Assembly: GCA_028534125.1 (NCBI GenBank)
Contig: CM052816.1
Location: 38,752,001-38,816,000, forward strand
From: Lama glama
Taxonomy: Eukaryota
Length of the DNA stretch: 64,000 bases
Direction of reading: 5' to 3'
The notes beneath the pieces are model-generated. The model ran no database searches. It saw nothing but the letters and a program-made list of their open reading frames with translations, and had not been told where the DNA came from. This document shows, piece after piece, positions 5,074 to 48,471 of the stretch. The position numbers and the translations under genes were made by a program. Positions within the stretch are counted from its first letter, which is position 1, and the number at the start of each line of letters is the position of its first letter.

Positions 5074-5307
<234 letters not shown>

Positions 5308-12300: not shown

Positions 12301-15300
12301 TACCATGTACCAAACTGCTTCTGCCCCTGTACCTACCACACAAAGATAAATGAATTACCTGATAATTAATCCCACCCATGTAACAAGCCCAATTAGCGCA
12401 TTTAAGTTTTCATTTTTGTTTGGGTTTCTTCCACTTCATCTGCACCGTGAGAACATCATAGCTGTGTTTCATAATGCTCCTATCCAGGCTCCTAAGCCAC
12501 AAAAGCACACAGTGCAGCACTGTTCACTAAAACTATATTTGAAAATAAACAGACTGTTAGGAATGGTTAAGACAGATAATAATAGACTAGATTAAAGGAT
12601 AGCAGATCACTCCTGACACTGCATAAGATTAAGTATGCTAATCAGATTTTAGATTTAGACAACTCAGATATATCCCAAGTAGAACAAGACAAGGTACTCG
12701 GATCTTTACTTCACTTTCTTGCCTTTCAAAATACATATTTGAATTTTATCCATGTCTCCTTTAGAGTTGAAGGATTTATGAAGGCTTTATCCAGGTGAGC
12801 TGATTATACGTTCTTTTTACTTTTTTTGTTTTTTTTTCCATTTTGAATGAAATGTTCCCTATTTTAATTCTTGCTGTAGTAAATTAGTTGCTTGAGAAAC
12901 GATAAAGGCAAAGGGAAAACTATTTGAATGTTATACATAAAGATAATTTAACACCATATTTCTTTCGTCACAAAAAATCCAACAGCTGTTTGTAATTTGC
13001 TTTGTTACCAAATAGAGAGGATGGATATACCCCCCCCAAAAAAATTCTAAATAGTCAGTATGTTTAGGACTCTTTTGTTTATGCTAAGAAAGACATCATA
13101 TGCACATTTCAATAGCCACTATCGATATCCTAATTTGGTAATTTGAAATAAATTGTTCATTTGGAAAGCAAGGAAAATGTAACTGAACAGCCAGGCTGTT
13201 AAACATAATTGAAATTCATTCTGAATTCAGTGAGGGTCAGTTTCATTTCAAAGCAGCAGTCCTTGTTTTGAATTCCTATATTCTGCTTTGTTTCAGCTGC
13301 AGCATTAAATGTACTAATCACCAAAACGATTTTCTCATCTGGTTTGGTTAGTAGAATTTTTCTTGATTAATTTTATACTTAATTTTTCTATTATATAAAT
13401 GTTTATATTTAATTGTTGGGGAATACATTGATCACCCAGAATATTGTGATCTGATCTCAAGAAAGAAGACATTAAGGGTTAAAAATTTTCCTGTAACAAC
13501 AACTGCATCTACTCTGAGATTTAGACCAATTTCATAGGCAAATTATTCCGGCTTATATCTTTGGTATAAATAATCTCAAATTAAACTTTGCAAAATAAAG
13601 TATTTGCAACTTCACTGTCAGTTGACCTTTAAGTAAAATGTTCCAAGATTTTATGGCAATGTATATTTATAATCAAAGATTCCTCTGTGGAACAAGAATT
13701 CAGCCTGTCCTCCTTAACCTCCTCACTCTCAGAATGTAAATATTAGACAGTTTTTTTATCTCCTTTTCTTCTCTAGAATTTAAACATTAGTTCTTTTATT
13801 CAAGTATCAGATTACCATAATGTTGACTAAAATTACTCATTTGGAAAGTAAACTGAAAAGTAAGCTTCTATTTTCTACTTTTTTTTAAAGATACTGTATT
13901 CCCTCCCTGTTATGTGAAGTTATTTAACTTTTCAAAGAAATCTGTAGTAAACACGTGATGAAATTACAGTCAGGATGTTCATAAAATAGTCTTATTATCC
14001 TCTCTTCAGGGGAAAATCATCGAACAACCAAGTTTTCAAATGTCTTTAAAATGACACACCAGGAATTTAACTCTGATGGGTCAAATTCTCAACTGTCTCA
14101 TTATCTATGATGGCTCTTTCACAGAGTGTTCCTGATTATTTTTGTAAAAATACAAAAAAAAATTTTCAGAAAAAAATTCTGTATGTGATCTGACCTGTGA
14201 AGATAAAAACTCAGTACCTAAAATGCAGTTACTCTTATCTCATTAGACTGCCCAGAACCTCAGTGAATTTGAGAGATGGGATGGAATGTTAGCACTGATT
14301 ATCTGCCCAATATAAACCCAATCATAAAGTGATTAAATTAACCTGGCAGATTAATTCTAAACATAATTTTGCATTCCCTCACCACTGGCCAGACTGCCAG
14401 TTATACACTTTTTTACGACAGTGGGCAAAACCTCAGCTTAATCAGTAGCTCAAGCTATGTAAAAGGAAGGTCATCAAAAAATGTCACGCATAGGACATTT
14501 TAAAATAAAAGCCTTTTTACTGCTTGAAAAACATGCATTAGTTTGTATTAAGCTACAAAAATTTATTTATTTTAGTGAGTAAGTAAAGTGAGCATAGAAA
14601 ATGTTTTAAAATGCTGATTCTAAAATTTTTGGAGAAGATATATCCTCTAAATATTTTGATTAAAGTCTTTTTAAAGTCCATATATCTTATTTACAGTAAT
14701 ATTCTTAATCAAATTATTTTTTCAGAGATAATACAAGTAATTTCAAGGTAATTCAAGTTATCTTGAATTACGAATTCTAAACCAGTAATAAGGTTTAACA
14801 TTGCCCAAAATATCCTAAATATAGCTAAAAATAACAGTTGGCTCTTAATTTTTCTCACTCTTTAGAATTTCAAAGTGTGGTTATATATGAGTTTTCCTTG
14901 GCTCTTCAAAAGGAATGAAGATGTTACACATTTTCTGTTTTGAGCAATCAAAAACTCCCTGGTGTCACAGACTTGATGACATTTGCCCCTGAGGAATAAG
15001 ATGCAACTTCACTGAAAGAATCACAGGGATTTCATGTTTAGGGGGAACTACACACAAAGGTTTCTGTATGGAGATCAAGACATACATTCAAACACTACTT
15101 TAAATTGAGTTTTCAGGTTGAATGCTTCAAAATTAAGAGAGTGTCACTTAAACCCATCAAGAGTTGGTAAATCAGCAATTACTAAGTCTTCAGAAAACCA
15201 TAGCTCTTCTGGAACAGTCATTGAAATAGTGTGGCTGCACTTCAGTAAGTCAAAAGGGACACAACACTTCTCTTTAGAAAACTCAAAGGCATTTTTCATT

Positions 15301-19945: not shown

Positions 19946-20904
19946 AGAACTTTTATTAACTATCAACAAATTAATACAGAGTAAAAGGAAAGAATACATT
20001 TAGAAATAGAAGAGGGCCCATTATTAACAACATAATTAGATACAGATTGGGGCTGCCCATCAATTCACTCCTTCTTGCATGTTTATTAGGTACTGATTAT
20101 GTGCCAAACACTGAGCTAGATACTAGGCATGTATTAACAGTTCTTTCAATTTCCTGAAACAAAGTTGTTGTGCCATTTCAGAGCTGAAGTACAAACTGAT
20201 TATAAAATTTGCTCTTTATGATCAGAAATAATTCCAGGACATCTACACCATATGTCACTCAAAGAAAGAGTCTGCCAAATTCCCAAAAGCCTAGGTTCTA
20301 GTCATGAACTTGCCGTTATTATCGTGATACAAGAAGCAAGAACTCTCTGGGTATCAGTTTTTCTCCTATAAAATGAGAACTTTGGATGAGGTAATCTTGA
20401 AAACTTCTTTTAGATATTCTAGCTCAAAAAGAGTTTATGGTTTGATCAGCTTTGTCTAAGCACTCCTGTGATAGTCTCCCAATGTCAGGCATTGCTCAAG
20501 TCTAATTACATGTATATTCTAATAGATGTGTACATACACTCTAATAGAAGGTAAAGAATAATAGACGCCATTTACCGGAAGCATGTGTGAAATACTTTCA
20601 GTTGTGTTTCTTCAGGACAACTCTGCAAGGTGAAATTTGTTATCATTTTCGTCTTAGACTTGAGGGAAACTCAGCCTCATGGAAATTACATAACCTGCCA
20701 AGCACACAGCGGAGCCAGACCACATCCCAGATCTTCCACTAAACACAGTGCAGCAGGCTGCATCCTGCTGTTCAAACTACAGGGGATCATAGAGTAAATG
20801 TCAATACCCTAGTCAAGTGCTTTTGAAGCATTTTTTTTTAATTAGAAAATCCAATGTGTGTAAGACAGGGGTTAAAAAAAAGGCAGATATTAATTACGTG
20901 TTTG

Positions 20905-20990
20905 TAATCCTCTCCCCAATCCCATCTCCACATTGGCCTTCTGAGAAGAAAGGATTATTACTTGCTTAGTCAGCCAGAGAAACTTAATTG
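20905..20990 (+). promoter_or_regulatory. Putative photoreceptor-type proximal promoter of PDZPH1 (CRX/OTX2, NRL/Maf and RAX-like sites)
   Basis: TAATCC at 20905-20910, GGATTA at 20952-20957, MARE/NRE-like TGCTTAGTCAGCC at 20963-20975, CTTAATTG at 20983-20990. Lies directly upstream of the exon-like segments. Motif-based only. Confidence 0.5.
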
Positions 20991-21021
20991 TGCCTATTGG
21001 GGGAGAGAATAGAAAGGATAA

Positions 21022-21250
21022 TTGGAAGACAGAAAACGAGCGTCAATTGCTCTATGTAAGAAAGGTAGCCTAAGGAAAAAGAATCTTCATAATGTGGTAA
21101 GACTTCAAGAGTTTCTGGAAGAAAAAGGATTTGAAATCAATACATATTGTGATGTAGTGGATTTTCAGGAGAGAGATGAGTTAAGAGGAATTTAAATAAA
21201 TTTTTTGCCAAAACTGGCCACAGAGCAGCCAGATTTTATACGAGTTACAG
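21022..21250 (+). other. Putative PDZPH1 upstream exon A (5' UTR / decayed coding exon); true 5' boundary unknown
   Basis: 57 open codons from TTG at 21022 (LEDRKRASIALCKKGSLRKKNLHNVVRLQEFLEEKGFEINTYCDVVDFQERDELRGI), TAA at 21193, then INFLPKLATEQPDFIRVT. Donor CAG|GTAAAA at 21250/21251, phase 1. Confidence 0.4.
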
Positions 21251-21364
21251 GTAAAACAGATAAAAGTTGAGCTTCTCTGCTGAGGTGTCCAAAAGCACAG
21301 CTGCCCAAATACACTGAAAACAAACTGCTTCAGTGGGAAGCTGTTTCTCTTTGCATCTTTGCAG

Positions 21365-21534
21365 ACAGTTTAATCCTCTGAAAGTAAAGCAATCGAATCC
21401 AGCTTAGCTCCAGGCTGGTGCCTGCTTGAGGTGGTACCTGGAAAGTTAGCAGGCTGCCATTTGCCCAGATATCTCCCCAATACTTTCTATTAAATACATC
21501 GCCAGGTAAAATAATCCTTTATTTCATAATCAAG
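21365..21534 (+). other. Putative PDZPH1 upstream exon B (5' UTR / decayed coding exon)
   Basis: Strong acceptor ctgtttctctttgcatctttgcAG ending at 21364. Donor AAG|GTAAAT at 21534, with an alternative CAG|GTAAAA at 21505. 170 nt, phase 1-0. Confidence 0.35.
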
Positions 21535-22642
21535 GTAAATAATAAATTTGATCTTCAAATAATTGATTCTTCTACAAAGACTGTATAGAGTATATTAAAT
21601 CTTATAATATTTACATATAGTGTATATAATGAAAATGTAATAAAAGGCAAACCATCTCTCTACCCCACTTAATTTAGCAGGACCATAAATTTGATGATAT
21701 TGAATTAGGGTCAACTTTACCAAAATAATTAGGTATTTCTATTAGGCTAAGAAAAATTGGTATATAAAAATGATCAATTAAACAGAACATGACTTTATAA
21801 CTTGCATCCTAAATGTCTATACATTTGAAAAGAATATACATTTGAATGTTCACACAGTATATAACAATGCACCAAATAGTTTCCTGTGTGCACCAAACAA
21901 TGCACACAGGAAAGGAGAATATGATTATGATAATAAAATGTATTCAAAGTAGAATACTATGGGATACCAGAGAATGATACCATGCTATCAAGTTGGCCAA
22001 TGAGTTGAGTTAGTCAATAATTTTACTAAACCTAAATTCTGAGTGGAAAATAATTTCAAATTTGATGCTTTCAAAGGACAGTGAAAGCTGAAGACCCTCT
22101 GCTCCCCCAAATGAGGAGGAAAAGAAGAAAAGTCTATAAAAAATGGAAAATCTTGAATTCCACAGAATGTAAGTCCAATTTATTGGTTTTACAAGTACAT
22201 GTAAAATGAACTACTCAGCTTATGTATCTTGTCCTTTATCACAGGGATATCTGTGAAAGAAGGAAGATAAATGCATATAAATGTTATAAAATGATTTAGA
22301 AATTTGTTCAATTGTTATTATGTACACACTTCTGCATTATTAATTATGTGAACTGTGAATAGTAAAAATCTAAATAAAAATATTTACATAATCAAAGGTT
22401 ATTAAAACCCATAGTCTTAGAATCTGTTATCAATGCATCAATATATAACTGTCTCAATTCTATCTTCCTGCTTGCAGAAATTGAAAAGTAGTCAGTTGAA
22501 AGAGGCTATAAGCTGTAAAATTACAAAATTGAAAATGGCTATAAACTGAAATGTTCTTGGCATGAGGGTGTTATTTTAAGAATAAGTTGTAATCTACAAT
22601 TCTGGAAGGCAGGCTATCAGTCTATATATTGCTGTTGTGTAC

Positions 22643-24117: not shown

Positions 24118-26358
24118 GTGAACCTCAGCCTGCTAAGGAGAATGGAGATAATAAGCATACAACTCCTTCTGTGACAAAGCAGAAGTCCCCTTTTCTCCCT
24201 GAAGATAAGAAACAACCTCCATCTGACAGCAAAACAAGTAGGGAGAGGGAAAATGATGATCCTCCTTCGTCCATTTCTCATCAGCCAGTGAAAGTCTTAC
24301 CAGCTGTCATGTTTAATGACTGTGAAGAATCATTATCAGGAAAGATTACACTTCAGGATTTCCCAGACACATTAGACTTTAAACCAGCAAAAGGCAAAAT
24401 TATTTCAGAAGTGAAATGTGGAGCTTTCAACGTACAAGTAGAAATCAAGAACAGACTTTTCTATAAAACAGGAACACAGATCCCCACAAAAAAGAGATGT
24501 TCAAAATGTCACCAGTATTACTCTGTCAGACACATTCAGAGATGCTACACTTCTAGAAGTCACTCTTCTAAATCCAAGAATATATCAGTAGAAGAACTAA
24601 AACGTGAGACGCCATCTAAATCTGAAGGCAAAATTGCCAAAGTGGAGAGCCCTTCACTGAAAGTGAGCATTATAGGGAAAGGAATTAAAGTCAAATACAT
24701 GAGTAAGAAACAGAATGTATTAATAAATATAACTCATCCTAAAAGAAGTGGGAAAATAGCTAAGTACAGAAACATTTCCTCCAATCAAACTACTAAAGGA
24801 TGTCCCAAGTCATCGTCAGAGTCTGATACCAGGTGCTCTGAAAAGCAGCAGCTTGAAAACAAGCATCAGAGTTCAGATTGTCTGCATGTCTCTCCTATTG
24901 TGTCTTCTGCCCAGAAGGAGGAGAATTTTGATACAGTTGTGGCTTCTCTGTGTTCACCCCCTGAGAGGGAGAAGAATAAGCCTGACACACTATCTTCAGT
25001 CTTAGATGACTGTGAGGTAGAAGCTGCCCTATTTCAGCAGAAGGACTTTATAATTAGTAAGAATACCCCCCGAAAGAAACACTTCTCTGAGGCTGAGACT
25101 CTTCTCAAAAACATTCTTCCTACTTTGCGTGATACGCTGAAGACCACAAGTTTAAGTGATACAGACCTAAGTAAAATGCCTTTTGAGGATACCAAAGATG
25201 TGGCTAGAGAAAGAAAAATCATCTTTGATAAGCCAGAAAATATCACATCAGACTCATATATACAGCACAGCACAGAAGGAATAAATTATATGCCAAGTAC
25301 CACTGCTGACATCTTTCTAGTTCAAGATGGCCAAGACTCTGACTTTTGTTCTTCATCATCTCTGAGCATGCAACTCGAAGGAGAAAGGGCAGCCAACATT
25401 TATTGCAGAGGCAGCAAAATTCCACTTGCAGATTGCTACAAGAAGTCAAATTCTTTATCTTTCCCTTCCATTCAAAATGCTCTGAAGTCTTCCATCTCTT
25501 TCGGCCCATCACACTGGGCCACCAGACACTCAGAACCTAAAGAAACCCCTGAGGATACATTTTCCTTTGATCACTGTGCTGTATTTTTGAAAGACTGTGA
25601 GGAAGAGCATGTTAATGTGATTGATAGAAACTTTACCAAAACCACTTTGCAAAGTGACTCTCATTCAAAAGCACAGCAACTGTTGGAAATGAGGAGTCCA
25701 CAGCATCCAGCTCTCAGCCCTGCATCCTCCAACAGCCTCTCTGCTGGCAGCCCACTTAACAGTAGTAGCCACAGCACAATAGAATGGGATCACACGGAGT
25801 CCCAGGCAAGTCATCCAGAGACAGAAGTCTCCAGCAAAACAAAAGCACCAGTAATGACCTTAGTAACTGGCGAGTTAGACCAAAGATTAATTATTCAGAA
25901 TGATAAAGAAGGCACAGTGTATTCTAATCATCCCATGGGAATTACAACCCCTAACGAGTCACCCAGCTCTCTGGGAAATGTTGAGAAAGACACATTTCAG
26001 ATAATTACGTCTGTGGTAAAGAATGCATACCACAGAGATTTTGAAGACCTATCAAAAGAGAATCAGGAGGAAGTCTGTTTTCAAATGGATTTTCCTAACA
26101 GTGCTGAGTTCAACTGTGCAGTGTGTGCTACAGATAATCTGTTTCTCATTGAGAAAACACTGACCAATGATGCAGATCAACATGGTAACCAAGATGAAAA
26201 CAACTTTGGACTAACCAGTTTTAAACAGGAACCAGCAGAGTGCCAAAGGACTGAATCAACAAAGCCATATTCTGAAGGAGATAAAAATGACCCAAAGGAA
26301 ACTTACTATCACCAAATAGACATAATGCTCTCCCCTCAGAAGCAGAAAGCTTTGAAAG
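24118..26358 (+). CDS. PDZPH1: PDZPH1 giant coding exon (2241 nt; Ser/Glu/Lys-rich, probably largely disordered)
   Basis: Lies inside the 814-codon ORF 24054-26498. Poly-T tract plus tctttAG acceptor at 24116-24117, donor AAG|GTACAG at 26358/26359. Phase 1-1 and in frame with the downstream PDZ exons. Named from the PDZ domain plus adjacency to NUDT12. Confidence 0.88.
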
Positions 26359-31916: not shown

Positions 31917-32108
31917 ATTGGAATTTGGAAATAAACAGCCTCCGAAAGTTATCCCAAGAATTGGCTCCCAGAGGTGCAAGGGCCAGTGATGGTTCCCAGG
32001 AAGAAGCGGTAGACCAGTGGGCCAGGAGGGGGCAGCAGTTCAAAGACGGCAAAAGGTGCAGCTCAGCAGGCGGAAGTTCATTTACCAGCAACATCACTGA
32101 AGGATCCA
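31917..32108 (+). CDS. PDZPH1: PDZPH1 coding exon (pre-PDZ linker)
   Basis: ctAG acceptor, CCA|GTGAGT donor. 192 nt, phase 1-1. (D)WNLEINSLRKLSQELAPRGARASDGSQEEAVDQWARRGQQFKDGKRCSSAGGSSFTSNITEGS. Confidence 0.88.
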
Positions 32109-32614
32109 GTGAGTAGACAATTGCCTTCTTTCCCAAAACCGGAGCAAAGGCAACAACTTACTGAAGCTTAACCAAGTCCCCTCCTTCTTATCTTCATAAT
32201 ATAAACCCTATTGTTTGACCATGGCAATGTGGTGATTATATGCTTTTATATGAAAGATATTTTTAGAATAATCAACTCTTTACTACCCACTAAGGAATCT
32301 CAATGTGGTAAATTACCTCCTTCAAAACACACAACTGCCTACTAAAGCTAGTTTTTTCTTCAGAAACTGAGATAACCAATCATAGGGTTCTTTACTGAAT
32401 TAAATGTCTCTTATTTCAAAGAATTTTGAGTTGTTTACAGAAACACATTTAGTGCCAAAAGATAAGATTAATATGTTTGATCGTAAGAAACAATTTTCTT
32501 CTTGATTTAACATTTCTGAAACAAGGAATCGTCTTTAAGAAGATGCATACTTTAGTGAGATAGTGATACTTCTCCTGCTGTTGAAAAGATGTCATTGAAT
32601 CAGCACCATACCTC

Positions 32615-33120
32615 TGTCAGGGAGGGAAAAACCTTCCTCTACCCTTCTAGGTTCTTTTGGCTCACCTAAGAATTAAATTGACATAAGATAGATTAATAGG
32701 AGAAAAATTTAATTTCATAGGTATGGGAACTCCACATACATGAGAGGGTCAGAGGCCTCACATACATGAGAAGTTTAAAGGCAGAAAGGTAAAATCAGGT
32801 ACATATGCCATCCTGAGCTAAGTTGGAATGAGGTGGGAGCCTGGGGCTTTCAAGGACAGAAAGGTCATTCACGGGATGATAAGGAGAGCAGGTATTTGGT
32901 AATTAGATGTTTGTCCTGCAGTATAGATGAAGCCACTTAGATAATATTTACCTCTGGCATTAACTCCTTTTCTGGGAAAAATCCCCAATCTAAGCTCTTC
33001 TAGGTGGTTGAGGGAGGGGCAGTATTCTCCTGAGTCCAGAGGGCTTCACTGCCTTTAGCTGAAAATAATCCACAAGCCAAAGAGGCACATCTTGGGGAGG
33101 CCTGTTCTAAACTCCCATAC
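32615..33120 (-). mobile_element. ERV1-class solo LTR
   Basis: Begins tgtcagggaggg; contains aattaaattgacataagatagattaatagg and ends ...gccaaagaggcacatcttggggaggcctgttctaaactccca, resembling antisense ERV1 LTRs. Family not resolved. Confidence 0.6.
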
Positions 33121-33239
33121 CGTAGTCCCACAATCAATGGTAAACTGAAAATGGAAGGCTGAAGGGAAATATGGGTTAAAAGCAAGTGGGAGAGGCATCA
33201 GTACATAGCACACTTAGTATGAGGACTGAGATTTTTAGA

Positions 33240-33690
33240 ACACATGATGTTAGAGCTGTGAGTTCATTTTATTGGAAGCCCTTACTGAGAACTACAGCCT
33301 GGGAGACAGCCTGTCAGATAGCTCTGGGGAACTGCTCCAAAGAGGTAGGGAAGGAGCCAGTATATATATATGATTTTTTTTTTTTTACCTAAGAAATACA
33401 TGTAGTCAAGCACACATCTTGGTAAGAGATTACTGCTAGTCACAAGGAACAGATATCTCACGTTAATGATTTTACTACTTACCTATGAGAAGATAACAAG
33501 ACTCTTGGGTCATTGAAATTATTCCTTAGATATTCATCTTAACTATTTCAGGGCCCATTTATCTAAAACACAGAATGTGTCATCCCGTTTTTCATACTGA
33601 ATTCCTTTCAGGGTGTAACTGAAGGTCAGTGACCGTAGTGGCTAGTGACCTGATCCTTGTAGAACTAGATGGCTTATTTTGCAACTAGAT
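33240..33690 (-). mobile_element. MER41-like ERV1 solo LTR
   Basis: tttattgg...gagaactacagcctgggagacagcctgtcagatagctctggggaactgctccaaagaggtaggg...gaattcctttcagggtg, resembling antisense MER41-family LTRs. Confidence 0.6.
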
Positions 33691-33719
33691 GTTTGTGCTT
33701 CTTAATCTTCTTCACCGAT

Positions 33720-34950
33720 TTCTTAAATTTTTGCTTGCACATATACTATTGTATAGGGTTGCTTTACTATCACTCTCTTGTTCACAGACTCTTGAAATAC
33801 CATCCTGGAGAATATTTTTCTTATATCAGACTTCTAATAAAATATTTCCACTGCTACACATTTTGTTGTAATGTTCATTTTTTTCCACTCCCATTTCTTC
33901 TTCCCCTTATCAATTACTATATTGATATAGTCTAGAATTTGATTTGGATTTTTTAGAATCAATACTTTTAAAAATCAGCACAATATAGTTCATTAATGTT
34001 TCTTCACACTGCTTTTGCACCAATTACTTCCAATGGGATTTGTCTTCTTTTTCTTCTTACTATAGTAATCCCCTTATAACTTTTTCAGAGAGATTCTTTG
34101 GGAAGTAAAAACTAAGTAATTATATATCTGAAAAGGTATTCACTTGCCTCTTAGTTCTGAAAGATAGTTTGGTATATAATTCTAGGTTCAAATTACTACA
34201 GAAATTGGCTATCTTCCAGTAACCAGTGGTGCTGGAGAGAAGTCTGAATTTGATCTCATTCTCACAACTTTTGTCATTAATTCAACTTTTGTCTCTATTA
34301 GCTCTTACAGTGTTTTCTCTTTACCCTTGGCATTCTAAATTTTTTTCTAGTACATATCTCAGTGTGTATACTTTAAATATATTTTCACATTTGGCATCCC
34401 ATAAGCTATGACATGCTGGTGACTCATATCTTTCTTCAGGTCTCATTAATTCTCAGATACAATTTCTCTAAATACTGCTTTTCTTTTTCCTCTATTGTCT
34501 CATAACAGCATCCCTTTAAAAGAAACATTTAAAATTCTGGATCTATCCTCCAGATGTCTCAGTTTTTCTTTTGTACTTTGCATCTCTTCGTCAATTTGTG
34601 CTCCATTCTGAGAAAATTCCTTAGCTCCATCTTTCAACTCAAGAATTCACCCTGCATTCAAATCCTTCCTCTCTTTAGCCTTTTTAAAAATGTTATTATT
34701 TCAACAACTCTGTTTTTAATTTCAAAGGATCTCTAGATGGTTCTTTTTTACTGAACATTTTTATCTCTTGTATTTCTGAGAACATTAAAGGTATTGTATA
34801 AAGTTTTAATCTAATTGCTCTATCAACTATCTCCTTAGTACCTATTTCACACTTGCTGAATTTGTTATCTTTCTTTGATAATGTTGGCATTTCTCAAATG
34901 CTTTGTGATTTTCGACTAGGTGCTTATTCTTTGGTTCAAATTCTCTGTTC
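33720..34950 (-). mobile_element. Ancient L1 remnant (antisense, T-rich)
   Basis: tatatatctgaaaaggtattcacttgcctc...aaagatagtttggtatataattctaggtt...gagaagtctga, resembling antisense L1 ORF1/ORF2 region. Confidence 0.55.
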
Positions 34951-35338
34951 ACTTGAGGCCTCCAACTGAGCACCTGGGCAGGTAGCAAAGGATCCATTAC
35001 GGTTTTTGCTGTATTCAATATAAGAAAGAATGCTTCAGGTTGCAATAAATGACTTACCCCTGCACAAGATATTCTATATCCCATCTGGGTGTCCTCTGTC
35101 CTCAATCTTTAACTTTTTGATACATCCTTTTTTTCTTCTGGAGGTAGGTAAAATCATTGCTGCTACTTGACTCATAGTGGAGTTTCTAAGTGAGGAATGT
35201 GTAGACATCAAACTACTTGCCGTTTCTGCTGTACTGCTCCAACTGATTGTCCTGTTTTTTGCACCTGGGGCCTCTCTAGCTCCTGGGTTCTCACTCTCTG
35301 TCATGCTCCCCACCATTCTGCATCAAAACGTTCTCATA

Positions 35339-35763
35339 GATAAGCCAGACAGAGAAAGACAAGTACTGTATGATATCATTTATATGCAGAATCTAAAAAA
35401 GCCAAATTCATCAAAACAGAGTAATATGGTGGTTACCAGGGAATGGGGGGTAGGGGGATAGAACAGATGCTGTTTAAGGGTACAAACTTGCAATGAGTAG
35501 TAAATAAATCCTAGAGATAAAATGCACAGTACAGTACATATAGACAACAGTATTGTATTATAACCATCACATTTGCTAGGAGACTAGAATTTAATTATTA
35601 CCACCACTAAAAAGAAAGGATAATCATGTAATGTGATAGAGGCCCTGGCTGTCACTACAATGACAATCATTTTACAATGTATAAATGTATCAAATTAACA
35701 TGGTATACCTGAAATTTACATAATGTTATATGTCAAATGTATTTCAATAGGAAAAAAAAAAAA
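35339..35763 (+). mobile_element. 5'-truncated L1 (L1MA-like 3' end) with poly(A) tail
   Basis: ataagccagacagagaaagacaagtactgtatgatatcattt...gtggttaccaggg...aagggtacaaactt...atgttatatgtcaaatgtatttcaatagg(A)12. Possible decayed TSD aaaacgttctcata / aaaagctgtctcaca. Confidence 0.85.
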
Positions 35764-36129
35764 GCTGTCTCACAAACATCCTCTGCTGTGATTTCACTCT
35801 GTGATTCTGGATTTCAGGTATTTCCCAGTTACTGGTGTACTGAGAATTCCCTTCTTGCTTTCAAACACAGCTATAGATCGTAAGATACATACCATACTAC
35901 ACATATACACACATCCCCCATTTCCTTCCTGATTTTCCTCTGGATTTTGAAACACCTCTCTCCTTATGATGAAGAAAAATTCACCTGCAATCCCTGCTTC
36001 TACATATGGGCAATTGAACCCATCACATAGTTCATAAAACAGAAGACCTTGCAGAAATTTGGACCTATCCATAAACATGTTTTCTAGCATTCCTATCAAA
36101 ATAGCATACTGGGTCTGTGTTTCGTCCAA

Positions 36130-36590
36130 TAGTGGACTTGAATCCACATCTGCAGTAGCTTCCATTTGCCCCTGACTTCCTTTCTCACCCTTCTCTACCT
36201 TACTGTCTGCCCCAGTAGTCTCACCTCTGTGGACTATTATTTGCGCACTGGCTTCCTGTGGCCAAGAGGTAAGATCAGCAGAAGCCTGGAGGGAGTGAGG
36301 AGAATGAAATCCTGGTATTAGTGCCTCAGATCTGTCCCTATGGTTGTGAGGGCTGCTTGTGTCCCTAAAGCCACACTCTTACAATGTGGTCCTTTCCACA
36401 TTGCCTGCTATGGCTCTGGGGTCTGGTAACTGGCACCTGCTTCCCCACTTAACTATTTCAGTCTTAGATGGACTGGTCTATCACACCTGATTTCCTTAAG
36501 TCCTGTCCACAGTTTGTAAACAGGATTTTTATTAAACTCTCCTCAAATTACTCATTTGAGTATGTCATCAATTCATGCCACAACCTATGA
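36130..36590 (+). mobile_element. ERVL-class LTR remnant (LTR33/LTR16-like)
   Basis: ctggcttcctgtggccaag...cagaagcctggagggagtgaggagaatga...tttgtaaacagg...ttattaaactctcctcaaattactcatttgagt. Confidence 0.5.
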
Positions 36591-36609
36591 CATACCAGTG
36601 CTCTGTTCT

Positions 36610-37085
36610 GATATTACAGCAACGATCAAGTACCACTTTTACTACATGTTGGTAAGATGGAGCTGTTTATTGCTTACAGAGATAAGGGAGGGTATTCCCG
36701 GACAGAGGCTTGGTAATGCCTCACAGGGAGAAAGGTAAAGCCTGATTTTACTGAGCATTAGAAATTTGATTTAAGGCAGGTCTTTCAATGCAAGAGCTTG
36801 ATTAGGACTGGGTAACAATCATGATTTAAAAGCTTAGGACTTAGGGAAATGGCAAGGTGAGGATTTTGAGGGTTTCAAAGAGATTGTTTCAAATAAACTA
36901 TCTGTTGGTGCATTCTGTTGAAAAGCTGATGGTTGCAGGAGAAGTTCCTGTAATGAACCATAAAGGTATCTATCTGCCTGATCAGGAGTCTTCTGGAGAG
37001 TAAAATGTGTTACTTAAGACTGTGGAATAAGGTCATGTTAATTTAGACAGTAAGATGTGTGGGAGTGGATGGTTTTGGTCCTCAC
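36610..37085 (-). mobile_element. ERV1-class LTR remnant
   Basis: agctgtttattgcttacagagataaggg...tttaaggcaggtctttcaatg...ggatggttttggtcctca. Family not resolved. Confidence 0.5.
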
Positions 37086-37403
37086 TGCCCAAACTGTAAA
37101 AGAGGATGGAGGTTTTGTTCTCAATGTTCTCACACCTTTCCTAATCTTGAGGCAAATAAACAGGCAAAAATTCACCAAAGTTGATTTCCCCAAACTGGAT
37201 TTCTTAGACAGCAATATTCTGGGACTGCCATTCATGTTTTTCTTTGTCTTTTGTTTGATTAACTTGCAGGCTTTGAAATTTTTATTTCTTTTCATCTAAG
37301 AATACAAAGTTTGTGTTACATATGTAAATCAGATACAACTGCCACTTGCCCTACTCTTCCAGGTCCCCCAAAGAATGCACTCACACAAAAGCAGTACAGT
37401 TTG

Positions 37404-37505
37404 CAGACAGCCCTCTGTATCCTCGGGGAACGGTTTCCAGGACCCTTCCCTTGTGGATACCAAAATCCCAGAATGCTCAAGTCTCTTATATAAAAGGGCA
37501 TAGTA
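37404..37505 (+). mobile_element. MER2-like (TcMar-Tigger) terminal fragment
   Basis: cagccctctgtatcctcgggg...ttccaggaccc...ggataccaaaatcc...atgctcaagtctcttatataaaagggcatagta. Confidence 0.8.
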
Positions 37506-39199
37506 CCAGTGAGACAGAGTCCTCTGAAGGCATCAAAGGAGAGACAGAGGGGAGGGCTTCCATCACATACTCCACAGCATACAGCCTGAAATCTCCTCTA
37601 GATACTCTACTTTGAAGACCCCTGTGCTGTCCTGTAGTCACCCAATGAGGACCTTCTATCCCTCACATAATACACATAGTCACTAAGTTCTGTTTTCTCC
37701 TCTTTGGGTTTTCCCTTGGACCCTTGAAATTTCTCTCTTTTATACTGCAGAAAATTCAACTGCAGTTCATACCTCTAAAGCCATGTAACCAAAATTATCA
37801 AGGTGTTCAACAATCAGAAGCCACTCATCTTAAAGGCTAAGAAGGAGGAAGCTGAGGGAAGAACAATTTGGTAATAAATAAATAGAAATAAAATTTTACA
37901 TATAATAACAAAAATCTGTTACATACAGCAATACTGCTGTTTCCACTGCTACCTGGAACAACTTACGCTTACTAAAAAATCAGATTGAATGGAAACTTTG
38001 TTTAGTTTGACTAACTACAGATGATCTTCATTTGCCATAGAGAAAGGGACCATTTTCTCTAGTCTTCAGTTCTTTCTGATACAGGAGGATCAGATTCTTC
38101 TAGTAGTTCACTGTGTCTTTTAGTTCCCTAGACTCCTTCAGGCCAACTCTATTTCATCCTTTGTTTTGTGGACAAATCCTCCACTACCAGTGCTCTTTCA
38201 CATTCATGTCTGCTCTGCATTTCTTGAGAAAAAGGAGCAACTATAGGCATGTCGGAATTAGCTCACTGTGATTTACCATAGCCAACTGCGCACATTTTTT
38301 TCTAACACAGCAATTCAGTAACATCAGGTTAGTAGCTTAAAACTGGCCATGGTGGGGTTATTTATACAATGGAAGCTGGCAAGCACTACAAATCAGGGTT
38401 TTTTGGTTTGTATTTTTTTTTCAATTTGGAGAGTCATTTGTTAAACATTTAGCAGTACCTACTTGAAACAACACAGGAATCAGTTGTATAACTTACACAA
38501 ATTCAAATTCAGGCCAAAATAACATAATCATTTTAATTAAAACAATGATTATTTCCTTTGGGTTGAATTCCGTTTTGAATGAAAACTTACACTAACAATT
38601 TGTTTCGGATTAGACATGAGGGAATTGAACTACCATTTTATTTTTCAGTTTATCCAAGTCAGAGACATTCAGAAGGCATGTTGTATTTCTTCAGAAACTT
38701 TTCAGTAGGGACTGCAATTCAGTAAGAGCTGCTGGAGCTAGCATTGTTTAATGTGTGGTTTAAATTTTATCTCATTTATAGAGTCAGGATATGCTACTAA
38801 TCCATGACTTAAAATCTGACAGCTTTATTGAGCATCATTACAGCTGGTGTTTCTCAGCCTGTTAATCTCACTCATCTCTGACTTCCTACATAATAACTGG
38901 AAAAGACATTAGGAATGACATATTTATGTGTGTGGACACAGTTGATCAATCCATCTAGGCTGTGGGGAATGCTGACTAAGGCATACCAGGTAAATAACTT
39001 GGAGGCTGTAAGCTGAAGTCAGAACGGGCTGCAAAATGGAGCTCTGATTTTTATAATCTCGAATGGCTTCTGTATTACAAACAGATGTTGTAAGAATTTG
39101 GGTCTAATTGTGTGAGGATACTTGATAGCATTTCTCTTATTTCATTCAGCTATAAGAATTATTATGGAAATGTATTTCCGTAAGAAAAGAGCTCCGATG

Positions 39200-39432
39200 G
39201 CTAATAACAAGAGCCAACAATCACGTTGTGCTTATTATGCCAGGCTTTACAATATAAATGAGTTTAAGTACTGTATTTTCACCCTGACTTTACTAAATGA
39301 GGAATCTGAGTCATGGAGAGGATAAGTGACTTACCCAGTGTCACTCAGCTCTAATTAGTGGTAGAGCTGGGTTTCAAACCCAGACAGCCAGAGCAGGAGT
39401 CCATGCTCTTGAACACTGCAACACACTGCCTC
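39200..39432 (-). mobile_element. MIR remnant
   Basis: tttactaaatgaggaatctgagtcatggagaggataagtgacttacccagtgtcactcagct...gagctgggtttcaaacccagacag. Confidence 0.8.
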
Positions 39433-42276
39433 TGGTTGCACTAGTCATGTCTGACCCTGATCTCTCTCTGGAAATGTCTAAACAGGGTCTCACTTCATTA
39501 GATAGCACTTTTCTGTTATCTTCGAATAATACAGTAGAATGAAAGAGATATGAGAATATCTAAAGACGCTTGGAACTGAGCTGCATATTTTATTTTTTTG
39601 ATTCTCAAGTCAACAAAAGGGAAGTATTTAAAATTTCAAAGCAACTATATATCAATTTAAAAACAAATAGATAAATTGTTTTTCATTTAAAAAATTTTCA
39701 AGAGCAAAGAAGTGAGCATGCAATTTCTGTCACACCAAGCATATTTAAGGGCTCATTCTCTTCTAAAGTTTCATTTTATTAAAAGGCTCATCTAGCAAGC
39801 CAAATTTTGGTGACCAAATTTTGGTGACAGAATCATTTGGATTTGTTTTCTCTTTGGCTCAAAGTACCAAAAGGGCAGCTATTGAAAAGTCTAGCAGCTC
39901 AAAGCTGCAGCAGGTGTGTGGCTTGCTGCTTCATTGGATTTTAACACAAATTTATGTCTCAGTTTATATAAGAATATGTTGATTAGCTCTGTCTTAGTAA
40001 CTGAATGAACAGAGAACTGCTCATCCACATAATCAAATCTGTTTATAAATAAGTGAGCTGTTTTAACAGTCTCATGCAGGCTGATAAAAACAGAGATGAC
40101 TATAATTTAAAAGCCAACCTTCATATCTTTACATGATAAGGCATGATTACATATCCTACATGGACAGCTACTGCTCAGGAATAAACAAAATAAAGATAAA
40201 TCTTTGGGCCCAGGAATATGTATATGTTACATTTATAAATATTAAAGTATAACTGAATATTTAAGGCCAAGGATATATAGGAAATCAATGAATTATTCTA
40301 ATTTTTATGGTTAGCTTTTCCTCCATTCAAAGTCAAATGTCACACAAATTTATTCAAAAAATGAATGCAAACATACTTAAGGGATTTTGAAATATGACAT
40401 GTGAAAGAAGGTATTCTATATCCTGAGTTAATCTATTCTATTCTAAAGTTTTCATCATTTTTATTTCAAAAAACAAGATGTCCTGTAATTTTCTCATATC
40501 ATTTACATTCCAATTTTATCATTACATAATATTCCCACATTATCATCCCCTTTATTTTCACACACGAAAATTGTAGTTATTCAATCAACATGATCTGTCT
40601 TTCTAGTACCTCCTTCCCTACTGTGGGCCACTTGTCCATGTCACATTTGCCCACCTATCCACAACTCCATCCTTTAGAAATTCTGCCCACCCTACAAGGT
40701 ACAGTCTGATAACCTTCCTTTAATCCTTCCCTTCCCTACAGCCAGAATCACTCTCCTTCCTCTGAACTATCTTCTTTCATCATGAGTCCCATATCTTATT
40801 CATCTTTCTATCCCCATTATGTCTAAAATTGGATCTTGCTCACGACAGAGGAACAATTATTTTAAATTAATCCAACTCAATAAGTGAGTAATAAATGGAT
40901 AAATGCATCTGAAACTATTTAAGTAATGTGAATTTATATTGAGTGACTAACAAAATTATATTTGGTACATAAACTAAAAACTACAAAAACAGGCTTTAAA
41001 TATATTTGAGGTTTGTTCTTGACTATCTGCAAGAGACTATGGTGTCGCATGCTTTGTCAGTATACCACCCCTGACCATTTCTACACAAGTTAAACAAATA
41101 CTGGAGCTAGAAATCTATTGTTGCATTTGTCTGTGTCTCAGCTAACATTTATGCTCTTCCAGTACCAAGAGAGCAGAGGTGGGAATGGAGGGCCAAGGGC
41201 AAGAACCATTAGGAATGAGTCTCCAGAGAAAATCAGTGAAAGCAAAAGAATCCTTCTTCTTAGGAGCTTTGTATAACTGACCTTCAGCAGCAGTCCAGGT
41301 GGTTACTGCTGGACATGAGGCGGGCAGTACAAAAGAGGTTTCACTTAAAATTTTTTAAGAGAAATACATTGGGAGCAACTGTAGTATATGAGAAGAAATT
41401 AAGAGAGGTGCCTTGTTGTTGTTGTTGAAGGATGATTTGGTGATCTTCAAACCCTACCCTCTTCATGATACTTGAGAAAGGCAAATAAAGGACTTATGCT
41501 TTTCTAGAAAGTACATTTTGGTTTTCAAATGGTGCTGCTTAACTCTGCACCCTTTAAAGACTGAACGACTGAAAGACTTGGGTATGACTTTATTCAGGTT
41601 TCAATTACCTAAACAGGGCCATAAAGAAATACTTGGAAGCTAATACAGAAATATACTCTCGTTTCTTTTACTGGCACAGACTTCCATACAATCCAAGAGA
41701 CCCCCCAAATACATAGAAAACCCTAAAATGCTATGAATGAAACTGTCATATGAAATTTTACTTGCCCCCCTATAAGTTTGATTCCACATGTAACAGCATA
41801 GAGAGTTTTCTAGGAATGTATGTTTTGAAGCAACTTCTTTGAGGCACAGAGAGACAACAGTGATTTTGCTCCCGTGCTTGGAATTTTGAAATCCCTTGAA
41901 GAGGATTCTAAAGCTAATTTCAACCTTATGTGGCTTCATCTTGACCCCTAAAAACCAATACATAAGTCTCAAAAACAATGATTTTTTTCTGTACTTCTCA
42001 ACAGAAGGATTCATAGTGCTCTCTCTAGTATACAGACCCCCACAGCATAGGCCCTCACGCAATGCCTATTTTGTTTATGATACTTCAGGACTATATAAAT
42101 TCTTCCTAAGAGAACTGTCCAACAAACTTAGTTACTTGTTTTCAAGGAAGACACTCTGCTTTACAGTACAGCTTTCAGCCCTGAGCACATTTGGTTGCTT
42201 TCTCACCTTGGCATCAGCATGCGCACAGCTTTCCTGACAGAACATAATGCATATTATCACCATTTCTACTCCTCAG

Positions 42277-42444
42277 TCACCTCTGAAGATGGCTGTTCTA
42301 TGGATCTTGGCTTTCGAGTTGGTGTTGAAGAAAAAGGATTCTACACAGAGAATTTCCACTCAGCAGCATGGGTTTTCCGAGGGGATGATGGGAATCCTGA
42401 GGACAGTCCCAGATGTCTTAGTAAAAAACCCCGACCAGTAACTG
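42277..42444 (+). CDS. PDZPH1: PDZPH1 coding exon (pre-PDZ linker)
   Basis: tttctactcctcAG acceptor, CTG|GTAAGG donor. 168 nt, phase 1-1. (I)TSEDGCSMDLGFRVGVEEKGFYTENFHSAAWVFRGDDGNPEDSPRCLSKKPRPVT. Confidence 0.9.
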
Positions 42445-44532
42445 GTAAGGACCCTACAATTATGGTAAAATTTCTATGTCTTAGAGAACCTATAACTAGG
42501 CAAGTCTCTGAAGCTGGCAAACTTGCACACTGGGTGGAGTATCTGGAGAGAAGTATGCATATGTGTGTGTATATATATGTGTGTGTGTACATATGTACAT
42601 ATATATACTTCTTAATACCGTGAAAGAATCTGAAACTATTAAAATAAAGCCTGTCTTAAGTGCTCACTCAAAAATAAAATAGTAACTCCAACTTTCGAGT
42701 GAAGATTAACGTATGAAGAGTCAAGAGTCTTTTTCATTCTAAAAGTTAAAATGTACTATTTTTTAAAAATGTACTGGAGAATATACACAAGTAACAAATT
42801 ATCATTTACTGTTCCAACACTGAAATATGACCATCTTATTATTTCTGCGTTGTCTCTTCATTACATACAGGTCCAGTCCTGTTTTTAAACGTATATGGAA
42901 TACACATTTCATATTATCATGTAGTTTGATATAGAAGATTCTATAGCCTGCTTTATATTTGATAATGTAGTTATTTAATAGTTATACTTTCATTTAATAA
43001 AATGTTTTCATGTGTTTTTGCAGATAGCATTAATATTCTAATAACTTCATGATTTTTTAAGAGATTAAAATTTAGTTTACTAAAGATGCATGTTTTTAAC
43101 TATGTGATTTACTTCCCTAATACAACAACAGCATAATGATTAAAAAAAAAAAGTTACACCTGAATTACAACTTTCTTTGCTGCAAAATCTAAGGTGTAGA
43201 GCTTTTGAAAACTTCTGTTTTATTGGTATAAATCAATGACTTTGATGAATAGTAAACAATTTAACTCAAGCAAGCAAAGATTCAGGTTGAAAATAATGTT
43301 TTAAATTAATTATACAACAATTCATTCAACAAACACCATACCTACTATGGCCTAGGCATTGGGGGAAGTTGCTTAAGATACACAGAGAGAAGTGACAGGT
43401 ATGAATATGATAGATTCTACAAAAAAGGTACTTAACATTTCAGTACAGGCATCAAAATGTGCTTAGTTTTATCTAAATCCCACTTATTCAGACAAGATTA
43501 ATTGTTGTTCTATAGAAGATCATCATTTGTTTTATCTGTAGAGCAAAATAGCCTTTCTTAATTTTTTCTTATAAATGTGAAATTTAGCATTGGGGGATTT
43601 TAATGAGGAAAAGCTGTAAATCTAAATGAATTCCTGTACACATGCATAAGACAACATAAGGTTTGTATATTGCATATTTACAATGTTTATGTGTATTTAT
43701 TTCATAATATGAATTAATTGAAGTTAACCATTCATTGAGAAGTAAGCATGAGATCCTGAATCTAAGACTTAAGGAATTCAGAGCGGAATTTTTTAAAATT
43801 AAAATAGATGCTGAGGATCTAGCAATAAACTTTTTGAAAAGAAAATTTTCTATAGTTAACTTTTATTTGAGTAATAGGATGGCATAGGAAAAAGACACCA
43901 GGCTGAAAGCAAGATTTTCAGGATTAGGATCTCTGTTTGTTCATTGATGTATTCAAAGCACCAAGGACACTGCCTGCTCCTGAATGTATGAACAAAGAGG
44001 CATGGATTTCAGTATTCAGTAATTTACCAGCTATGTGACTTTGGGAAAGTTACTTATTACCTCTGCCTACCTTACAGGATTATAAAAAAATGAAATGAGA
44101 CTATAGATGTGAACATTATAATGGTGAAAATTATAACGTGAAAGTTAAAATTACTATTTCTATCCACCTTGACTATTTCTATCTCCTACCCTTATTTTCT
44201 AAATTTTTATGAAAATTTTGACTGAATGTTAAATATATATTAATAAATGTCTGTATATATATATTTATATAAATTATAAACAAGTGCTATTACATAATAT
44301 ACTTACTAAATTGGCCAATATGTATTGACTTTGTGGCAGGCAACTGCAAAGGTAAGATGAATAAAACATCATTCCTCCCTCACAGTATCTTGGCTAACCC
44401 CCAAGAAAGGCAATTATCATTACTTCCACAACTGTTTACGGTCATCCAAGAATAAGCATTTCATTGATTCACTATTATTTGCTTTAGTTTTTTACAAAAT
44501 GAAATTTGTTTAATTTTGCCAAAAATTTTGTA

Positions 44533-44562
44533 TACACACACACACACACACATGCATACACA
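44533..44562. repeat. (CA)n microsatellite
   Basis: tacacacacacacacacacatgcatacaca. Confidence 0.9.
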
Positions 44563-46188
44563 GAAAAAACACAAAGAATGTATGTTTAAATGTGGCAAGT
44601 GAGTTTTATGATACTATTCATTGGACTGAACCTCAGTTCAAGAATGTGCTAGTTGTTCTTTCTTACTGTTACTTAAACTTCAAGCGTTACATATCCCAGA
44701 TGCATGCTTTTAACTATGTGATTTTTGAGAGATCAATAGAAGATGGAGATTGAAAGGAAAGATGAGTTGGAGGAAAATGAATAACTTTAAAACTGAAAAA
44801 TGTCTTTGTTAACCTAATGACATTTTAAATGTATTGCAATACTATTTTATATCTATCTGTATGTATTTTGTGAGAGTAAACTTAACACTTTAAAAAAATT
44901 CAGTCCTTAATCTCCTAGAAAATGCTCTTCTATAATTTGGAGAAATAGATAAACAAAGTCTGGCATCACTACAAAAGTGTATTGCTGGAACTACAAGAAA
45001 ATTTTAGGGCATTTTCATTATATGAGAAGTGTTATAGTATGGAAATAAGTACCCTTCATTTGAACTTTTACATCTAACAGTATGATTCCAAGGAAGTGTT
45101 ATTTGAAGGGATAAATTACTTGAAGATGTGCCCACACGGTCTCTGAAAAGACAATGACATTCAATTGTGGCTTTTCAGCAGCTGTGTAGCACTCATAGAT
45201 TATCCACTAGACAGGAGCAAGGGAAACCAGGACTATAAATCTTAAAATATGAGAAAATTGTCTTCAGAATGGGAGGGGAACAAGTTGCAAAACATTTTGA
45301 TTGTCTCTTCTCCCACAGGAGAGCACTACAGTTGAGCTCACCATTTAAAGACTTTATTGAATTGTTTATACTTTCACATACATTGTTGACATTCAATTTG
45401 CCTGATTGGGAAAACAAAACAAAACAAAAAAACACCATCACCACCACAGCCTTGAAAGCAAGAGCTGTCTTAACAGTCTCATGTAACACGAAAACAAGAT
45501 ACAAACATGATTTGATTTGAATAAACACAGTAAAAATACTCCATTAAACAAATATGTGTTGGGAGATCAACTTGTCAAAAGCAGAAGACAGTATCAAGAG
45601 GGGGACCCATAGGGAGCAAAAAGTTTGGACAAGTGGGGTTGTTAGAAATGATTTCTGCAGAGGTCAGAAACAGGATTTCTGATTTTCTTTTTGCCCTGAT
45701 AAGCTACCAGCCTGTTGCAGACTGCAAAATATTCATTTGCCCTTGAATTTCCCAGTTCTGTCCCTTAAATTATACTGAGATCCAGTAAGTGGCAGTCCAA
45801 ACAGTCATGTAAAACGACTGCCCAAAGGGAATCATATTAACAAATGACAGAGATCCTACCAGGCAGAAAGAATGGAGCAGAGCAGAGAAAATTAGGGCTG
45901 GAATACACTAATGCCTTCACAGCAACTTTGGTGTGCTTTTCCTGATATTGTTTTAACCAGCAGAAAAACAGTGTATTTTCTTCAGGCATTTTGGGATAAC
46001 AAACATTCCTTCAGGAATCTACATGAAGAGACTTTATCCTTTCTTTCTTTGAATGTTTTCCAATTTGGGTAGCCAGTATCTAGGATGTAAGGTCCATGAG
46101 GTAAAGTCTCTTGTCTGTCTTCACCACTACAGTCCTAGTACATAGGAAAACTCTTGGGCACATAGTAGGTACTCAGTAAATGGTTGTT

Positions 46189-46340
46189 TTCTAAAAAAAA
46201 TATTTTATTCATTTATCATCATATTATCTAATTATTTTATTTTGGCAGGGGGTGGGGAAAGTAATCGGGTTTATTTATTTTTGAACCCAGGACCTCATCA
46301 TGCTAAGCATGTACTCTACCACATGAGCTACATCCTCCTC
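46189..46340 (-). mobile_element. tRNA-derived SINE, Vic-1-like (camelid), inserted in an L2 3' end
   Basis: Reverse complement reads GAGGAGGATGTAGCTCATGTGGTAGAGTACATGCTTAGCATGATGAGGTCCTGGGTTCAAAAATAAATAAACCCGATTACTTTCCCC...A-rich tail (A box, truncated B box). Degenerate TSD cagtaaatggttgtt (46174-46188) / cagtaagtgcttatt (46341-46355), 12/15 identical. Confidence 0.8.
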
Positions 46341-48229
46341 CAGTAAGTGCTTATTAATGAATAACTTCTGCTATTAGGCTACAATGGATTTATCAAAGAT
46401 GGATTGCTTGTTTCCTTGTTTTTATCAGATATTTATATTCCTTAGCTGACCAAGGAGATGGTCACATCCAAGAACATCCAGAAAGACCGCCTAGCCTTTT
46501 ATTATCTTTGTCACTTCTTTTAGGAAACTTAATTTAAAAACCACATTGATTTAACTCAGAATATCTGAGAATAAGTTTAATAAAATAATGGCAAATCTTT
46601 TTACAAACTATGCAAAATAGTATGTAAATTTATAATAATAATATCTATCCAAATATCAGGGACTCACACCCAGACCATCTGTCAGCAATGGCAAAGAAAG
46701 AGATTCCTCATCAAGTGGGAAGTGGGCAAAGGTCCTTTCCACTCAAAATACAATTAAGAGTTTCCTCCTAATTGCTTCTAATTTTACCCATATTTTACCT
46801 ACATTAAGCTTTTTTTTTTTTTTTTTGAGTGTGAGCATTTGAACGTGAACCTTGAGGGTGCAACCCTGCAAAGAAGAAATGTCCTTGATCTCCAACCTGG
46901 AGGAAGATCTAAATCTTTCAGAGAATTGAGAACTGAGATATGAAAATATAGAAGGATTGAAAAGAAGCTGCAAAGTACATTACCCATAAGTTCTAATGTA
47001 TTCCTATTTTTAATGAAAGGGAATTATATTAAATTATAATTTTAAGGTGTTAATTTGCCTTTCCCTTATTAATAGATGAGCATTCTTATTTTATAATTAA
47101 TATATCTGACTTTTTACTAATAATTCACTTCTGGATCTCAGGAAGTTTATCATTATACTTTATTATGATTTATTCTTTATCATTTTTAGATACTCATTAG
47201 CATATAGAAGAAAAAATTCCACCCATAAAGTATGCCAATCTAAATGTTGGGGGACAGATTAATTCTCCCCAGTACTGCATTAGTACTTCTCTCTCATGAA
47301 CTTGACCTTTAATACAACCAAATACCCAATATTTTGAAGATTTTATTGTAATTCTTCATTGGATAATGTTGTCAGCACTTAAAAAGTGATCCTTCAGAGA
47401 TAACTTAAGCCTGTGAGATGTTTTATTTCAGTTTTGTACTCTAGCATGATTTTTTTTTCTAAATAACAAGCAAGATATAAATATACCGTAAAAGACAAAA
47501 CATGTACCATGGCCACATCTTCTTTTATGTAAATTGTCCTTCCACAAAAAGAATTCTTGCAGAGATGTGTTTTCTGCCTTGGAATCCTGCTCTTTCCTCA
47601 TCCCTACAGAGTAATAGCCTAAAGAGTTACAAGTTTCGACCTGTGAGGTTCTCTCTTTCAGGAATTCAGCCCGGGAAAATGCCCTTGCTAGTGGGCACAG
47701 AAGTTAAGATGTCTTGAGGTAGAGAAAAGTCAAAAGAACCTGTGAGTTAGCTGAAGTTATGAATAAGCCAAACTTGTTAGCAAGAGGAAGCTGTGAGGAA
47801 GAAATACACACACACTCACACATCTATACATACACATACCGAAAAGACAGTATAAAGGCACCAGGAGGGAAAGAGAGAAGATACGTACAAAAGCAGGCTG
47901 AGAAACAGCTGGGCCACACTAATTAAGGATTATTAGGCAAATGTGAAAATTCTTCAATTTTTACTGTGAAACCTCTAGAACTCCACTTTCAATGCAGCGT
48001 AACCTTACAGTTACAATTTATGCAAAGCCCAGCTACTCCTGTTTTTTCTAGATTTCCTAGATTCTTTTAAGACATAGATGTATGGCTGAGGATTCTGTTT
48101 TCTTACTTCCATGTATATTATAACCTTGTAATAAATGCTCCATTGTTTACGGAGCTGAGTGCCTCAGACCTGTAAGGGTCAGGTATCTTTTGGGAGTCAT
48201 GCTGCCTTGGGGTAGCAAGCACTGCCCTG

Positions 48230-48410
48230 TACTCATAATATAACTCAGATGAGTTATGTAACTTCTCCATGCTTCAATTTTCTCCTCTCCAAAAAAGGAA
48301 TATTAATTATAGGCTGATGTGAAGATTAAAATTAGATAATACTTGCACTTAGAATGTATTTATTAAGCCTGGCATGTAATAAACAAGCAATAAATACTAG
48401 CTACATTTAT
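48230..48410 (+). mobile_element. MIR remnant
   Basis: agttatgtaacttctccatgcttcaattttctcctct...gtgaagattaaa...gcctggcatgtaataaacaagcaataaatactagct. Confidence 0.7.
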
Positions 48411-48471
48411 AATCGTATTTGTAGAATCTAAAGATTAACTCAAAAGAATGTCCTCTTTGCTTCTTCTTTAG

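Follow-up and report, generated by a model that had tools for sequence, protein, structure and literature searches.

A candidate CRX/NRL motif cluster ahead of the first conserved coding exon of PDZPH1 in Lama glama

The window analysed in this study, a stretch of 64,000 nucleotides from contig CM052816.1 of Lama glama, carries exons of NUDT12 and, downstream of them on the same strand, the gene PDZPH1 (Table 1). The identity of this gene, already named in the original prediction, was confirmed by homologues bearing that name, by a Pfam PDZ domain and by an open chain of six exons, which runs from 22111 to 58541 over 957 codons with AG/GT boundaries and no stop, and is 71-80% identical to three homologues. 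When the large exon was used as query, 53 homologues were retrieved, several of them named PDZPH1, with the best identities to whales and pig. A lysine/arginine-rich start at 22111 is common to 26 of 55 homologues. Pfam recognised the PDZ domain in the window, and PDZ together with two PH stretches in both of the two full-length homologues scanned; the gene continues past the window end, and the PH exons lie beyond it. The gene adjoins NUDT12 and shows the PDZPH1 layout, in which a large exon at the N-terminal end precedes PDZ and, as seen in the homologues, two PH stretches.

Two peculiarities of the large exon were observed. At 24118-24140, near its start, PDZPH1 here is without 33 residues, in frame, and a counterpart of this segment is kept in 79 of the 82 homologues with the conserved start, so that the gap is probably a lineage-specific deletion. 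The donor of this 2241-nt exon at 26358 is weak (score 1.0) and the frame stays open to 26498; several homologous records of ~800-870 residues may end near 26358-26498.

Table 1. Features of the window by position
Feature	Position	Strand	Basis
Penultimate NUDT12 exon	5078..5277	+	Pfam NUDIX; in frame here
Rival promoter candidate, homeodomain-rich	12363..12649	.	Motif content; adjoins upstream exon
Conserved upstream exon of PDZPH1, 30 nt	12765..12794	+	Homologue peptides; highest donor score within 8400-24118
Candidate CRX/OTX2 + NRL rod cis-regulatory element (motif cluster)	20891..21024	.	Motifs, shuffles, ad hoc motif score
TAATTA	20891		Sequence
TAATCC, high-affinity K50 (CRX/OTX2) monomer site	20905..20910	+	Sequence; consensus in PMC6169884
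TAATCC on minus strand (GGATTA)	20952..20957	-	Ends 5 bp ahead of NRE-like site
NRE/MARE-like 13-mer TGCTTAGTCAGCC	20963..20975	+	11/13 to rhodopsin NRE
CTTAATTG, Q50-type homeodomain site	20983..20990	+	Sequence
Second TAATTG	21019		Sequence
Candidate splice donor after 21250	21248..21256	+	Scores 3.3 on a simple donor scale (homology-supported donor 22168: 3.6)
Other candidate donors, possibly used by an alternative first exon	after 21096, 21505, 21534		
Two more TAATCC (21371, 21512)	21371..21517	+	Second-ranked 164-bp window on ad hoc score
First conserved coding exon of PDZPH1, start codon 22111	22077..22168	+	AG/GT boundaries; start common to homologues
Large 2241-nt coding exon	24118..26358	+	Homologues, open chain
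Coding exons 31917-32108, 42277-42444, 48472-48573, 58431-58541 (PDZ domain)	31917..58541	+	Open chain, Pfam PDZ

The peptide of the conserved upstream exon was found in 38 of 271 homologous protein records, which by record name belong to carnivores, pangolin, artiodactyls, bats, rabbit and rodents (six mammalian orders), and in 36 of these 38 it is joined to the 22077 exon. These 38 records include many isoforms and close relatives and are therefore not independent, four Molossus records among them were placed by resemblance to other peptides rather than by their own best match, most of the gene models are automatic, and none of the 271 records is named as mouse. One peptide, six residues long, falls on 12778-12794 and stops exactly at the high-scoring donor listed for this exon. 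In Phyllostomus models the exon reaches at least 12619, with an in-frame alignment of 59 codons over 12619-12795 (score 218, against 43 for the runner-up). Of the 82 records that have the conserved start, 36 show no N-terminal extension and are uninformative on the upstream exon. Between 21.0 and 21.55 kb the best match of a homologue N-terminus scored only 33, level with chance matches; protein records are blind to a non-coding first exon.

Since the upstream exon is spliced to 22077 in these models, the motif cluster described below is placed by them within an intron, 1.1 kb ahead of the first coding exon. The description of the cluster as lying upstream of PDZPH1 accordingly holds for the start codon at 22111 and fails for the upstream exon of other mammals' models. 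Ten pangolin and beaver records begin instead with the end of the penultimate NUDT12 exon, 8/8 residues being identical up to donor 5277, which is spliced straight to 22077 as a NUDT12-PDZPH1 read-through. The initiating methionine of these read-through models lies in a frame other than that of NUDT12 and is a threonine here, and the pangolin and loris PDZPH1 records carry the name of NUDT12 isoforms. Because the 30-nt upstream exon has an acceptor, it could itself be a cassette exon of the NUDT12 read-through rather than part of a rod transcript. Within the same intron the N-termini of cattle and fin whale models align at 16549-16692 (scores 50-80), possibly a further alternative exon, and a homologue N-terminus match at 16099-16158 (score 47) was set aside as coming from one model only. 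Between NUDT12 and the 12.8-kb exon, a 95-codon open frame lies on the minus strand at 9784-10071, in a slightly more GC-rich patch.

The motif sites originally predicted (20905, 20952, 20963-20975, 20983, 21371 and 21512) are all exact in the sequence, giving high-affinity K50 sites at 20905 and 20952 and, further on, at 21371 and 21512. TAATTG and CTTAATTG we take to be putative RAX (PCE-1/Ret-1) type sites; the PCE-1 sequence was looked for in PMC5166794 and not found there. TAATCC is the CRX/OTX consensus (PMC6169884), and the claimed match of the 13-mer to the rhodopsin NRE at 11 of 13 positions was upheld against the NRE printed in an EMSA probe of PMC2571102, the two departures falling at inner positions. 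The same 13-mer matches the MAF consensus of PMC5335693 with two mismatches, on the minus strand its 5' half doubles as a CRX-type site of lower affinity, and the PMC8492058 library contains an unrelated element in which the same 10-mer core was treated as a CRX motif and mutated; the 13-mer may be read by CRX instead of NRL. Neither a dimeric K50 site nor a canonical TATA box was found within the cluster, its GC content is 38%, and no similarity below E 0.04 links it to the rest of the 64-kb window.

Whether such a gathering exceeds chance depends on how the rule is drawn. Block-wise dinucleotide shuffles of the 64-kb window were used as the reference, with n=150 for combination rules. TAATCC/GGATTA occurs 30 times in 64 kb (mean 38 in shuffles), NRE matches with up to two mismatches occur four times (mean 1.54; 6 of 100 shuffles reach 4), and TAATTG and TAATTA are found at 50 and 55 sites, respectively; no single motif type is enriched in the window. 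A strict rule, namely two K50 sites with an NRE-like site and TAATTG within 100 bp, has a single match in the 64 kb and none in the 150 shuffles, or one in 150 when TAATTG is dropped, and this rule was framed after seeing the cluster and fitted to it, so that its significance is overstated. A loose rule allowing three mismatches and 200 bp was satisfied in 16 of 150 shuffles, and two K50 sites within 100 bp in 129 of 150; the true significance is somewhere between the strict and loose results. Four of the 30 K50 sites fall inside 607 bp, a crowding that also arose in 6.4% of 20,000 simulations with uniformly placed sites. When 164-bp windows of the 64 kb were ranked by a motif score whose weights were likewise ad hoc, the cluster came first and the 21371 region second; among 300-bp windows the cluster came fourth, after 60951, 21271 and 12361.

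A second element, at 12.36-12.65 kb, adjoins the upstream exon and comprises TAATCC at 12367, TAAGCC at 12493 and, on the minus strand, TAATTG at 12390 and TAATCT at 12589 and 12626. At 12639 it also carries a match, with one mismatch, to the dimeric K50 consensus TAATCNGATTA as given in PMC6169884; the window has three matches of this kind in all. Every NRE-like site in this element has at least three mismatches, and the 20.9-kb cluster has an NRE-like site and no dimeric site. The distance to the large exon is 11.5 kb for the 12.6-kb element and 3.1 kb for the cluster. The mouse start site presumably lies ~16 kb before the large exon, and this spacing would fit the 12.6-kb element better than the cluster. 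It is likely that 12363-12794 constitutes the main PDZPH1 promoter region.

Mouse data, in which the gene appears in part under another name, bear on the cell type. We take 2610034M16Rik to be mouse Pdzph1. In Otx2-deficient retina it falls from 117.8 to 3.4, a change of ~35-fold if the table columns have the meaning assumed here, and the authors suggest its rod expression (PMC3094341); in Nrl-/- retina it falls from 69.6 to 5.1 FPKM (PMC3233386), and Pdzph1 is rod-enriched with a log2 fold change of 2.67 (PMC5335693). The predicted photoreceptor enrichment of the mouse gene is thus borne out, together with dependence on Otx2 and Nrl. Rods show 50-81 counts of Nudt12 and 15,700-19,300 of Pdzph1 (PMC5335693), suggesting that transcription of the gene in rods does not start from the NUDT12 promoter. 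PMC5480877 counts 2610034M16Rik (NM_027001) among new rod genes and gives it a single rod-type start, mm9 chr17:59130798, within 1 kb of which the CRX signals are 814 and 745 and the NRL signal 2386, and the DNase signal rises from 1832 to 42408, with columns assigned from the group header; NRL binding was recorded at only 61% of single-start rod genes in the same source.

Expression is, however, broader than the rod/pineal specificity originally proposed, since Pdzph1 also marks hypothalamic alpha2 tanycytes (10.1101/2020.11.02.359992, PMC9895379), of which Rax is a regulator (PMC9895379), and RNA runs from the reproductive system may contain it as well. Four such runs, all from one study, held 0.37-0.40 of the sampled words of 20500-26400 (unaligned), against 0.38-0.39 expected from the coding exons alone; runs with a share <0.2 or of guessed kind were left out. 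Models without and with a 21-kb exon give expected shares of 0.387 and 0.416 with an SD of 0.02, and cannot be separated by this test. PMC6951830 places the gene among its eye candidates of medium confidence, records no eye phenotype for it and counts 0 human orthologues and 1 zebrafish orthologue, and in the passages covered of 10.64898/2026.01.22.701181 it is mentioned solely as a predictive gene.

We tentatively favour, at somewhat less than an even chance, the reading that the cluster is an intronic CRX/NRL rod enhancer of PDZPH1 and not its main promoter. The candidate enhancer would sit in the intron between the 12765-12794 and 22077 exons, where CRX or OTX2 would bind TAATCC at 20905 and 20952, NRL would sit on the 13-mer 5 bp from the 20952 site, and TAATTG would be occupied by a homeodomain factor of the Q50 type; the resulting complex would boost transcription from the 12.4-12.6 kb promoter in mature rods. 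Binding, conservation and activity of the cluster, as well as the promoter served, are what we infer. In favour of such an enhancer, the cluster is the only strict-rule match and the top 164-bp window, and it stands close to the first coding exon of an Otx2/Nrl-dependent rod gene; moreover, the upstream exon recurs in 38 of 271 records, with the K50 and dimeric sites of 12.4-12.6 kb directly at that exon. Against it count the frequency of the loose rule in shuffles, the three 300-bp windows scoring above the cluster, the imperfect NRE-like site that is also of CRX type, and the missing dimeric K50 site. Neither motif content, GC content nor conservation alone predicts CRX occupancy (PMC6169884). 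NRL peaks overlapped CRX peaks at 65% and 48% on two platforms (PMC3325202), which suggests that co-occupancy by CRX and NRL is a general pattern. The PDZPH1 locus gave 0 matches in the PMC8492058 reporter library, searched at presumed coordinates with a positive control that worked, and that library omits earlier-tested peaks; the locus was likewise not found in the covered files of the PMC6169884 library, for which the search had no positive control, nor in small portions of the supplementary data of PMC6069558 and PMC3325202. In metagenome scans for mammalian host DNA, orthologous DNA was found among 0 of 552 pattern matches, and 0 of 68 loci matching a degenerate cluster pattern showed flanking similarity to the window.

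Alternatively, the cluster may be a chance gathering of short motifs in an AT-rich intron, with rod expression driven from 12.4-12.6 kb or from elements outside the window, which we regard as rather unlikely. The shuffles are consistent with this, as neither NRE-like nor K50 sites stand out on their own, two K50 sites in 100 bp are commonplace and the loose rule is not rare; so is the absence of the locus from the PMC8492058 library, with the omission noted above. Against chance, the highest-ranked cluster in the 64 kb stands 1.1 kb ahead of where coding begins in a gene independently known to depend on Otx2 and Nrl, and four K50 sites are gathered within 607 bp. The original prediction saw a rod promoter in the cluster. 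Both CRX and NRL are bound within 1 kb of the RefSeq start site in mouse, in its favour; the prediction is weakened by the intronic place of the cluster in models of six orders and by the rival element at 12.36-12.65 kb. As a rod-specific alternative promoter, the cluster would give a start near 21.05 kb and a non-coding first exon joined from a donor at 21096, 21250 or 21505 to 22077, and the 12.8-kb exon would then belong to non-retinal or read-through transcripts. This we consider unlikely. Of the two elements, only the cluster has a two-mismatch NRE-like site to go with the NRL signal near the mouse start; its candidate donors score about equal to that at 22168, a non-coding exon would escape protein records, and Nudt12 is low in rods. 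No convincing homologue N-terminus was found at 21.0-21.55 kb, however, a canonical TATA box is missing, the presumed mouse spacing favours the 12.6-kb element, and NRL binding, recorded at only part of the single-start rod genes, may not track the motif.

A role mainly outside rods, for example for RAX or LHX2 in hypothalamic tanycytes through TAATTG and TAATTA, appears very improbable: the marking of alpha2 tanycytes by Pdzph1, the part of Rax there (PMC9895379) and the two TAATTG and one TAATTA of the cluster would suit it, yet both motifs are common in the window, and the distinctive content of the cluster, K50 plus NRE-like sites, points to photoreceptors. These readings might also be combined, with three PDZPH1 entries splicing to 22077 (read-through from NUDT12, a promoter at 12.6 kb and, at the cluster, a rod promoter of its own that is so far undescribed) and the cluster acting as a cell-type switch, read by CRX/NRL in rods and by RAX in tanycytes; this is distinctly doubtful. 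If it were true, the decay of the cluster in humans could be compared with the coding-sequence loss of a conserved PDZ-PH scaffold.

The rod enhancer tentatively favoured here has well-known relatives. In the rhodopsin proximal promoter the NRE is flanked by the CRX sites BAT-1 and Ret-4 (PMC2571102), and in the cluster the NRE-like 13-mer similarly adjoins GGATTA, with more homeodomain sites within 100 bp; unlike that promoter, the cluster differs in order and spacing and at two inner NRE positions, is intronic in mammalian models and has the low GC content given above. Like CRX-bound or NRL-co-bound enhancers (PMC8492058, PMC6169884, PMC5335693, PMC3325202), it combines several K50 monomers with a candidate MAF-type site and Q50-type sites near a rod-enriched gene, and it differs from them in lacking a dimeric K50 site; activity was found to go down with Q50 sites (negative correlation, PMC6169884). 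The rod start sites of PMC5480877 include what would be the same gene under the synonymy assumed above, with both factors bound at most 1 kb from its start in mouse. If real, the cluster would be one more element of the well-known CRX/NRL type, in which its membership is a candidate one. Among the passages covered in papers naming the gene, none describes a regulatory element of PDZPH1, the cluster included.

Few transcripts of mouse retina depend on Nrl as strongly as that of Pdzph1 (PMC3233386). As the element type is thoroughly known, the gain is local, and it concerns a strongly Nrl-dependent, little-studied gene without a human orthologue; whether rods start at 12.6 or 21 kb is a question whose answer would yield a rod element small enough to test and a way into a scaffold gene that humans have lost. 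In the intron following the large exon, at 30079-30097, GGATTA is directly followed by a two-mismatch NRE match.
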